Shown here one piece after another: positions 58,301 through 61,300 of a stretch of DNA of 64,000 bases. Made by a program: the position numbers. How positions within the stretch are numbered: the stretch's first letter is position 1; every line of letters starts with the position of its first letter. The stretch is taken from the NCBI RefSeq assembly GCF_988243305.1, contig NZ_OZ547136.1; one strand, 5' to 3'.

Positions 58301-61300
58301 CGCTGGGCGTGGCTTCGGCTTTACCGCTGTGGAGCCGCGCAGTATTTGCGGCGGAACGCCCAACGTTACCGATCCCTGATTTGCTCACGACCGATGCCCG
58401 TAATCGCATTCAGTTAACTATTGGCGCAGGCCAGTCCACCTTTGGCGGGAAAACCGCAACTACCTGGGGCTATAACGGCAATCTGCTGGGGCCGGCGGTG
58501 AAATTACAGCGCGGCAAAGCGGTAACGGTTGATATCTATAACCAACTGACGGAAGAGACGACGTTGCACTGGCACGGGCTGGAAGTACCGGGTGAAGTCG
58601 ACGGCGGCCCGCAGGGAATTATTCCGCCAGGTGGCAAGCGCTCGGTGACGTTGAACGTTGATCAACCTGCCGCTACCTGCTGGTTCCATCCACATCAACA
58701 TGGCAAGACCGGACGTCAGGTGGCGATGGGGCTGGCTGGTTTGGTGGTGATTGAAGATGACGAGATCCTGAAATTAATGCTGCCAAAACAGTGGGGTATT
58801 GATGATGTCCCGGTGATTGTTCAGGATAAAAAATTTAACGCTGACGGGCAGATTGATTATCAACTGGATGTGATGACCGCCGCCGTGGGCTGGTTTGGCG
58901 ATACGCTGCTGACCAACGGTGCAATCTACCCGCAACACGCTGCCCCGCGTGGTTGGCTGCGCCTGCGTTTACTCAATGGCTGTAACGCCCGCTCGCTCAA
59001 TTTCGCCACCAGCGACAATCGCCCGCTGTATGTGATTGCCAGCGACGGTGGTCTGCTACCTGAACCGGTGAAGGTGAACGAGCTTCCCGTGCTGATGGGC
59101 GAGCGTTTCGAAGTGCTGGTGGAGGTTAACGACAACAAACCGTTTGACCTGGTGACGCTGCCAGTCAGCCAGATGGGGATGGCGATCGCGCCGTTTGATA
59201 AGCCGCATCCGGTAATGCGGATTCAGCCGATTGCTATTAGTGCCTCCGGTGCTTTGCCAGACACATTAAGTAGCCTGCCAGCATTACCTTCGCTGGAAGG
59301 GCTGACGGTACGTAAGCTGCAACTCTCTATGGACCCGATGCTCGATATGATGGGGATGCAGATGCTGATGGAGAAATATGGCGATCAGGCGATGGCCGGG
59401 ATGGATCACAGCCAGATGATGGGGCATATGGGGCATGGCAATATGAATCATATGAACCACGGCGGGAAGTTCGATTTCCACCATGCCAATAAAATCAACG
59501 GTCAGGCGTTTGATATGAACAAGCCGATGTTTGCGGCGGCGAAAGGGCAATACGAACGTTGGGTTATCTCTGGCGTGGGCGACATGATGCTGCATCCGTT
59601 CCATATCCACGGTACGCAGTTCCGTATCTTGTCAGAAAATGGCAAACCGCCAGCGACGCATCGCGCGGGCTGGAAAGATACCGTTAAGGTAGAAGGCAAT
59701 GTTAGTGAAGTGCTGGTGAAGTTTAATCACGATGCACCGAAAGAACATGCTTATATGGCGCACTGCCATTTGCTGGAGCATGAAGATACGGGGATGATGT
59801 TAGGGTTTACGGTATAAAAAGACCGTATTCGGAAATATGCCCGGATCTCTCCGGGCATTATGGTTACTTCACATCATCCGGCAGCGCATAAGCCACAATA
59901 TAGTCGCCCATCTTCGTACCAAATGAACCGTGACCGCCTGCGGAGATCACCACATACTGCTTGCCATTCACTTCATAGGTCATTGGCGTAGCCTGACCAC
60001 CCGCCGGTAAACGGCCCTGCCACAGTTTTTCACCGTTGCTCATGTTGTAAGCGCGCAGGTAGTTATCTGCCGTAGCGGCGATAAACAGTACGTTACCCGC
60101 TGTGGAGATTGGCCCGCCCAGCATCGGCATACCCATATTGAACGGCACCGGTACAGGCATCGGGAACGGCATACTGTCCTGCGGCGTACCAATACGTTTC
60201 TTCCACACCACTTCATTGGTTTTCAGATCCAGCGCCGAGATATAGCCCCATGCTGGCTGTTTACATGGCAGACCAAACGGTGAGAGGAACGGGTTGAGCG
60301 TGACACCATACGGTACACCGTACTGTGGCTGAATGCCGGATTCCGTACCCGTGCCTTTGGCATCTTTCGGCTGCTCCATCGGGTTACCCGGACCGCGTGG
60401 GATCAGTTTCGAAACAAACGGCAGTGCCATTGGGTTGGCAATTGCCACTTCACGATTCGGATCAACGGAAATCCCGCCCCATTCGAACATCCCCAGGTTA
60501 CCCGGGAAGACCAGCGTACCCTGTTCAGATGGCGGGGTGAAAATGCCTTCATAGCGCATCTGGTGGAACATCACGCGGCACACCAGCTGGTCAAACATGG
60601 TGGCTCCCCACATATCCGCACCGCTCAAATCTTTCGTCGGACGGAAGCTCAGTTCAGAAAACGGTTGAGTTGGGGTTACGTAATCGCCTTTGGCAGCCCC
60701 TTGGGGAACCGGTTTTTCCGGTGCCGGAACCACCAGTTCGCCATTACGACGATCGAGCACAAAAATGTTGCCGGTTTTCGCCGGAGCGTAAATAACTGGC
60801 ACTTTCTGACCATTAACGGTGATGTCCGCCAGCGTCGGCTGTGCCGGAAGATCCATATCCCACAGGTCGTGGTGAACGGTCTGGTAGCTCCACGCCAGTT
60901 TCCCGGTTGTGGCATTCAGCGCCAGAATCGAGCTGGCATAACGTTCCTGTTCCGGTGTGCGGTTACCGCCCCAGATATCCGGCGTGGTCACGCCCATCGG
61001 CAGATAGACCAGATCCAGCTTCGCGTCATAGGCCGCTGGTGCCCACGAGTTTGGTGAGTTAAAGGTAAAGGTGTGTTCGTCAGACGGGATTGCGTTCGGA
61101 TCTTTCGCGCCCGGATCAAAAGCCCACAGCAGCTCCCCGGTGTTGACATCAAAACCACGGATCACGCCAGACGTTTCGCGGGTTGAGAAGTTATCGGTGA
61201 CTGAACCGGCCATCACGATGGTTTTATCGGTGATAATCGGCGGCGAAGTTGGCTCATACAGACCCGGTTTGGTGTCCGGCATATTGCTTTGCAGATTGAG

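Follow-up and report, generated by a model that had tools for sequence, protein, structure and literature searches.

The question raised by this locus was why a segment of 46 residues within one protein is so rich in Met and His. The window, i.e., the whole stretch of DNA analysed, comprised 64,000 nucleotides of contig NZ_OZ547136.1 (assembly GCF_988243305.1). The segment was contained in the following gene:

58267..59817, plus strand: coding sequence of cueO, multicopper oxidase CueO, 516 residues plus stop codon (open reading frame, PDB, NCBIfam and Pfam)
58267..58350, plus strand: Tat signal peptide, residues 1-28, with the twin-arginine motif RRDFLK at residues 3-8 (Pfam and PDB)

The mechanically delimited open reading frame spanned 58228-59817 (plus strand) and began at a TTG (58228), 13 codons 5' of the annotated ATG at 58267. 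A Shine-Dalgarno-like AAGGA was present at 58255-58259, 7 nt 5' of that ATG. Because the ATG at 58267 has the AAGGA and gives the usual twin-arginine position, the extension from the TTG was considered to lie outside the CueO protein. Pfam TAT_signal scored 21.1 bits on residues 1-20, marginally under its cut-off (22.7). The mature crystallised chain (1kv7_A) began at residue 29 of the window protein, and the signal region was identical to that of K-12. CueO chains in the PDB (5b7e, 7f0v, 1kv7 and many others) aligned with residues 1-516 (E = 0), the NCBIfam CueO equivalog NF008205 scored 981.5 bits over residues 1-516 (cut-off 525), and Pfam Cu-oxidase_3, Cu-oxidase and Cu-oxidase_2 were all above gathering. 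Of 5,426 complete E. coli genomes, 5,424 carried this DNA under the annotation cueO, and the gene order speD-speE-yacC-cueO-gcd-hpt was that of K-12 MG1655. The open reading frame is E. coli CueO; PDB, NCBIfam and Pfam matches, the Tat signal, annotation, synteny and the CueR operator described below all concur.

Two other identities were considered and rejected. The paralogous, multicopper-oxidase-like FtsP/SufI family scored 298 bits (cut-off 581), and the copper ligands were all present; the CopA/PcoA-type family copper_res_A (TIGR01480) scored 119.9 bits (cut-off 478.95).

The window protein agreed with K-12 CueO (YacK, b0123; PDB 1KV7, 1N68, 3OD3, 3NT0, 5B7E) in length (516 residues), locus, Tat signal and ligands. 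The two coding sequences differed at 49 nt (96.8% identity), resulting in three amino acid changes (S191N, S271N and A464T), all of them outside the Met/His-rich segment. With 99.4% protein identity (513/516), both cuprous oxidase activity and copper-stimulated phenol oxidase activity are predicted for the window allele.

Upstream of the gene, one regulatory feature was read:

58191..58221, plus strand: CueR-type (MerR-family) promoter of cueO (read from sequence)

This promoter had a -35 element TTGACC (58191-58196) and a -10 element TATGCT (58216-58221), separated by a spacer of 19 bp, within which lay an operator dyad (ACCTTCCC at 58194-58201, GTAAG, and GGGAAGGA at 58207-58214). The published CueR signal is ACCTTCCC-(5)-TGGAAGGT in promoters with 19-bp spacers, and the yacC-yacK(cueO) divergon is among its sites (PMC1526738). 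As both the dyad and the 19-bp spacer match this signal, cueO of the window is predicted to be a member of the CueR regulon. A generic sigma-70 scan upstream of cueO, which allows spacers of 16-18 bp only, returned no promoters, because the spacer of the CueR promoter exceeds that range. A terminator scan resulted in two terminator-like matches, both inside cueO and at chance level.

The convergent spacer between cueO and gcd was 46 nt long (59818-59863), and contained a hairpin (GCCCGGA-TCTC-TCCGGGC) at 59839-59856. The corresponding spacer of K-12 MG1655 has 201 nt, with approximately 158 extra nt bearing REP-like palindromes that are absent from the window. The short spacer was common to the window, E. 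coli 042 and an O169:H41 strain, and the difference is therefore a REP insertion/deletion polymorphism.

Elsewhere in the window, the leu leader, dcw cluster, aceEF-lpd, acnB and other loci made up the corresponding stretch of an E. coli chromosome. The window is thereby confirmed as E. coli chromosomal DNA extending from the leu operon to can, and its oxidase of the cue regulon is intact and apparently functional. Five Rfam families were found at gathering level: the Leu operon leader (2338-2487, minus strand), PssrA (23988-24077, plus strand), STnc40 (29724-29793, plus strand), naRNA4, a REP-derived nucleoid-associated RNA (30197-30272, plus strand), and tp2 (44064-44177, minus strand). All five are expected for this region of the E. 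coli chromosome.

Within cueO, the segment and its parts were delimited as follows:

59329..59466, plus strand: Met/His-rich insert, residues 355-400, with 14 Met and 5 His (translation and composition)
59335..59373, plus strand: Met-rich (MR) helix, residues 357-369, the ordered part over the T1 site (residue range from PMC6155172)
59404..59466, plus strand: flexible His/Met-rich tail of the insert, residues 380-400 (composition and tandem repeat)
59419-59436, plus strand: perfect 9-nt tandem duplicate ATGGGGCAT x2 in the insert tail, encoding MGH-MGH (Tandem Repeats Finder)

The peptide MDPML...NHGG corresponded to codons 355-400 of cueO, nt 59329-59466. The sequence-only reading had given the right peptide and placed it at 59326-59465, which starts 3 nt early (one codon, S354) and ends 1 nt short; translation of that interval adds a leading Ser and cuts the final Gly, a trivial offset. 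Met made up 30.4% of the 46 insert residues (14) and His 10.9% (5), with 8 Gly besides; the other 470 residues of CueO had 15 Met (3.2%) and 18 His (3.8%). The probability of at least 14 Met in a given stretch of 46 residues of CueO was 8e-9 (hypergeometric). When the protein was shuffled 20,000 times, its Met-richest stretch of 46 residues averaged 6.3 Met (maximum 12), and neither 14 Met nor 19 Met plus His in 46 residues was reached in any shuffle of CueO. The compositional anomaly is thus real and far beyond chance, and the high enrichment in Met and His that had been noted from the sequence held. Met residues were spaced in MxM and MxxM arrangements, for example M355-x2-M358, M362-x-M364-x-M366-x-M368, M385-x2-M388 and M393-x2-M396.

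The same region was open on the opposite strand, in a 108-residue, His-rich frame (59284-59610, minus strand) with 19 His. A gene on that strand, of which the composition of the insert would be a reflection, would account for an open antisense frame across the region. However, this frame lies in the codon register of cueO, in which ATG reads as CAT and CAT as ATG, and it is open only since the sense codons TTA, CTA and TCA are absent between codons 340 and 456. Moreover, none of the genomes inspected had any annotation other than cueO for the region, and substitutions fell at third positions of cueO codons. An antisense gene as the source of the anomaly is scarcely credible, and by the evidence of the codon register the frame was rejected as a mirror artefact of the Met/His insert.

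The T1 ligands of CueO and of multicopper oxidases, which are taken here to be H443, C500, H505 and M510, were all present at the expected positions. So were the eight histidines of the trinuclear cluster (101, 103, 141, 143, 446, 448, 499 and 501; 8/8). Ligands downstream of the insert were encoded in two clusters:

59581..59595, plus strand: codons 439-443, with D439 and M441 (Cu5 or substrate copper, domain 3) and H443 (T1) (ligand list from PMC11494321)
59764..59796, plus strand: codons 500-510, with C500, H505 and M510 (T1); H499 and H501 of the trinuclear cluster adjoin (residue check)

Published ligands are M355, D360, D439 and M441 for Cu5, M358 and M362 for Cu6, and M364, M368 and M376 for Cu7 (PMC11494321). 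All four Cu5, or substrate-copper (sCu), ligands were present in the window protein (4/4), as were those of Cu6 and Cu7; the MR helix carried D360 (Cu5) as well as M358, M362, M364 and M368 (Cu6/Cu7). The insert had been called intact, and so it was: its frame was open, the published copper ligands were all in place, and alignment with reference CueO gave an amino acid sequence identical to that of K-12 MG1655 and of the solved CueO structures.

Variation of the insert within E. coli was limited. There were three differences from K-12 in the insert, all synonymous, with no amino acid change. The cueO of E. coli 042 differed from the window at 35 nt of the coding sequence and was identical across the insert. 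With a 241-nt query around the insert, no net length change was found in 29 full-length rows spread over 5,431 E. coli records. In eight intact E. coli alleles, picked to span the range of divergence of the species, the insert had 138 nt in all (8/8), and its changes were synonymous and at third positions, except for G399S in three alleles. No Met or His change in the insert occurred among these eight alleles. The amino acid sequence of the insert, beyond its mere composition, is conserved within E. coli, because length is fixed at 138 nt and changes are nearly only synonymous (eight alleles).

These results bear on a functionless origin of the insert, as a low-complexity expansion by replication slippage of DNA rich in ATG and CAT, tolerated in a surface loop. 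The perfect 9-nt duplicate ATGGGGCAT x2, the single repeat that Tandem Repeats Finder detected in the insert, would be in agreement with slippage and may be a trace of insert growth, and the length of the region varies greatly between genera. Against slippage are the length fixed in E. coli, the third-position changes synonymous apart from G399S, and the 14 Met codons unchanged even though Met has no synonymous codon; in addition, mutational and structural data show function (PMC11494321, PMC6155172, PMC12041951). A functionless expansion is highly improbable.

Regarding the window allele itself, the closest one found in complete genomes was that of E. coli O169:H41 Res13-Lact-PER13-34, 5 nt and one amino acid away; this strain is a pig isolate. 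The allele was uncommon: with a 1.8-kb query (58100-59900), identity was at least 99% in 27 of 5,431 E. coli records and 95-99% in most. Nucleotide differences were clustered, which suggests a recombinant, mosaic cueO locus. Ten matches to the cueO query in the E. coli collection were located on records classed as plasmids. The sole badly matching record was that of E. coli strain L37 (L003; NZ_CP034589.1 977470-979002), whose match covered 47% of the insert query at 84% identity. It was rejected as an alternative insert, because the annotation of its cueO records a frameshift and a stop codon within the gene, and is either a real pseudogene or a poor-quality assembly.

Between genera, the region was much more variable. 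Among 119 relatives, representatives of 50%-identity clusters, the T1 pattern H-C-H-M/L was kept in 117. The segment aligned to residues 355-402 had from 0 to 70 residues (median 4), with no more than 12 in 93 relatives and at least 20 in 20 relatives, 12 of which had at least 15% Met in M/G-rich, unrelated sequences; alignment of this gappy region was automatic, and these counts are approximate. Deletion variants in the PDB (2yxv and 8r4h) matched the window protein in two stretches, with the break at residue 356. Insert is the right word for the segment, because its length varies between relatives and the matches of deletion variants break at residue 356.

Hafnia alvei CueO (PDB 8R4F; delta-Met variant 8R4H) had the same three-domain architecture, T1 pattern and position of the Met-rich insert. 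The Cu5 pattern M-D-D-M was also common to E. coli CueO and Hafnia alvei CueO / P0001 (65%-identical representative). The Hafnia alvei insert is 22 residues longer and has 6 more Met than that of E. coli (PMC12041951); the aligned segment of P0001 had 70 residues and 17 Met, against 48 residues and 14 Met in the window protein, the two being loosely alignable. Most three-domain bacterial multicopper oxidases and laccases are without the insert, and PDB chains of these proteins matched the query no further than about residue 300-357. FtsP/SufI, CotA, the Thermus thermophilus multicopper oxidase and bilirubin oxidases have cupredoxin domains in common with CueO; T1 and trinuclear ligands are shared by CotA, the Thermus thermophilus enzyme and bilirubin oxidases, but not by FtsP. 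Met-rich Cu(I) motifs (MxM and MxxM) occur in PcoA/CopA-type oxidases, CusF and Ctr1, where thioethers bind Cu(I) or Ag(I) in an oxidising compartment. The chemistry of these motifs is the same as that of the CueO insert, without sequence homology; in CueO they form a lid over the redox site of the enzyme itself, whereas elsewhere they belong to a transporter or a chaperone.

In the literature, CueO-like enzymes have an additional, 'partially disordered' Met-rich domain over the Cu-T1 centre, which acts as a physical barrier to phenolic substrates (PMC11494321). The Met-rich helix comprises residues 357-369 and is held by a regulatory loop (299-314), and the sCu ligands have been described (PMC6155172). 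Flexibility of the domain was found by molecular dynamics in the Hafnia homologue (PMC12041951). These descriptions support what had been said of the segment, namely, that it is a known copper-binding feature of CueO occluding the T1 site. Copper binding as such stood, with Cu5, Cu6 and Cu7 sites published, and was refined in one respect: mutants of the Cu6/Cu7 sites had negligible effects (PMC11494321), and binding at Cu6/Cu7 is now regarded as contributing little to function relative to the Cu5 site and to collective recruitment.

Removal of the insert increased phenol oxidase activity 33-fold (PMC11494321), and work of 2024-2025 showed that oxidation of weakly bound Cu(I) proceeds without any of the insert (PMC11494321, PMC12041951). 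With the barrier description and the negligible effects of Cu6/Cu7 mutations, these results favour an insert that is primarily a passive steric gate against organic reductants at T1, its richness in Met and His being incidental to Cu(I) capture. A steric lid has no need, however, of 30% Met, and Met-richness recurs at the same place in independent lineages with unrelated sequences (12 of the 20 inserts of at least 20 residues). [quoted passage not shown] A primarily passive gate is therefore unlikely to be the explanation. [quoted passage not shown]

The segment is thus very probably the Met-rich domain 3 insert of a periplasmic, Tat-exported and CueR-induced CueO, where it would act as lid, Cu5 builder and Cu(I) recruiter. 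The lid function, the Cu5, Cu6 and Cu7 sites and the role in Cu(I) recruitment come from published experiments on the identical insert sequence. As proposed, the helix (residues 357-369) over the T1 copper would keep bulky organic substrates out, and M355 and D360 of the insert, with D439 and M441 of domain 3, would build the labile Cu5 'substrate copper' site. The many solvent-exposed thioether (and imidazole) ligands of the flexible Met/His tail would capture Cu(I) transiently, even when it is held by a strong chelator, and deliver it to the Cu5 site. From Cu(I) at Cu5, an electron would pass to the T1 copper and on to the trinuclear cluster, where O2 would be reduced to water. The window allele, with its three substitutions outside the insert, is expected from its sequence to behave like the K-12 enzyme. 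Nothing was found in the window sequence against the explanation as a CueO insert.

In the assays performed, deletion of the insert left copper resistance in vivo almost intact, both aerobically (PMC11494321) and anaerobically, with anaerobic resistance resulting from catalytic activity and not from the binding capacity of the insert (PMC12510620). Because of this near absence of effect, the physiological benefit of recruitment is putative. The same result has led to the speculation by its authors (PMC11494321) that the main selected role of the insert is outside catalysis, for example in obtaining copper while CueO matures or is exported by Tat under low copper, or in docking a partner protein that carries Cu(I). 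Complementation data argue against interaction with a partner (PMC11494321), and Delta-Met variants were produced and were active (PMC11494321, PMC12041951, PMC12510620). Such a role is very unlikely.

For the flexible, His-containing distal half (residues 380-400), a separate selected function apart from the hand-off of Cu(I) to Cu5 would be improbable. Residues 380-400 are under purifying selection in E. coli, with G399S as the only change seen (eight alleles), and no specific role for the five His of the insert or for its His-rich distal half was found in the CueO literature cited here. Candidate functions are the metalation of apo-CueO under copper scarcity, the release of the Cu(II) product, and a sacrificial sink of Met sulfoxide. 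A distinct function of the distal half, if true, would be a property of E. coli CueO generally and not of this window.

The insert is a well-studied and already explained element of CueO, and everything reported here is already known. There are dozens of crystal structures of CueO and recent mechanistic papers on the exact insert sequence, and the value of the present analysis is in correct annotation. A striking compositional anomaly is fully explained by known biology. The locus touches on a general question about CueO, which is the strong conservation of the insert against the little phenotype that follows its deletion.
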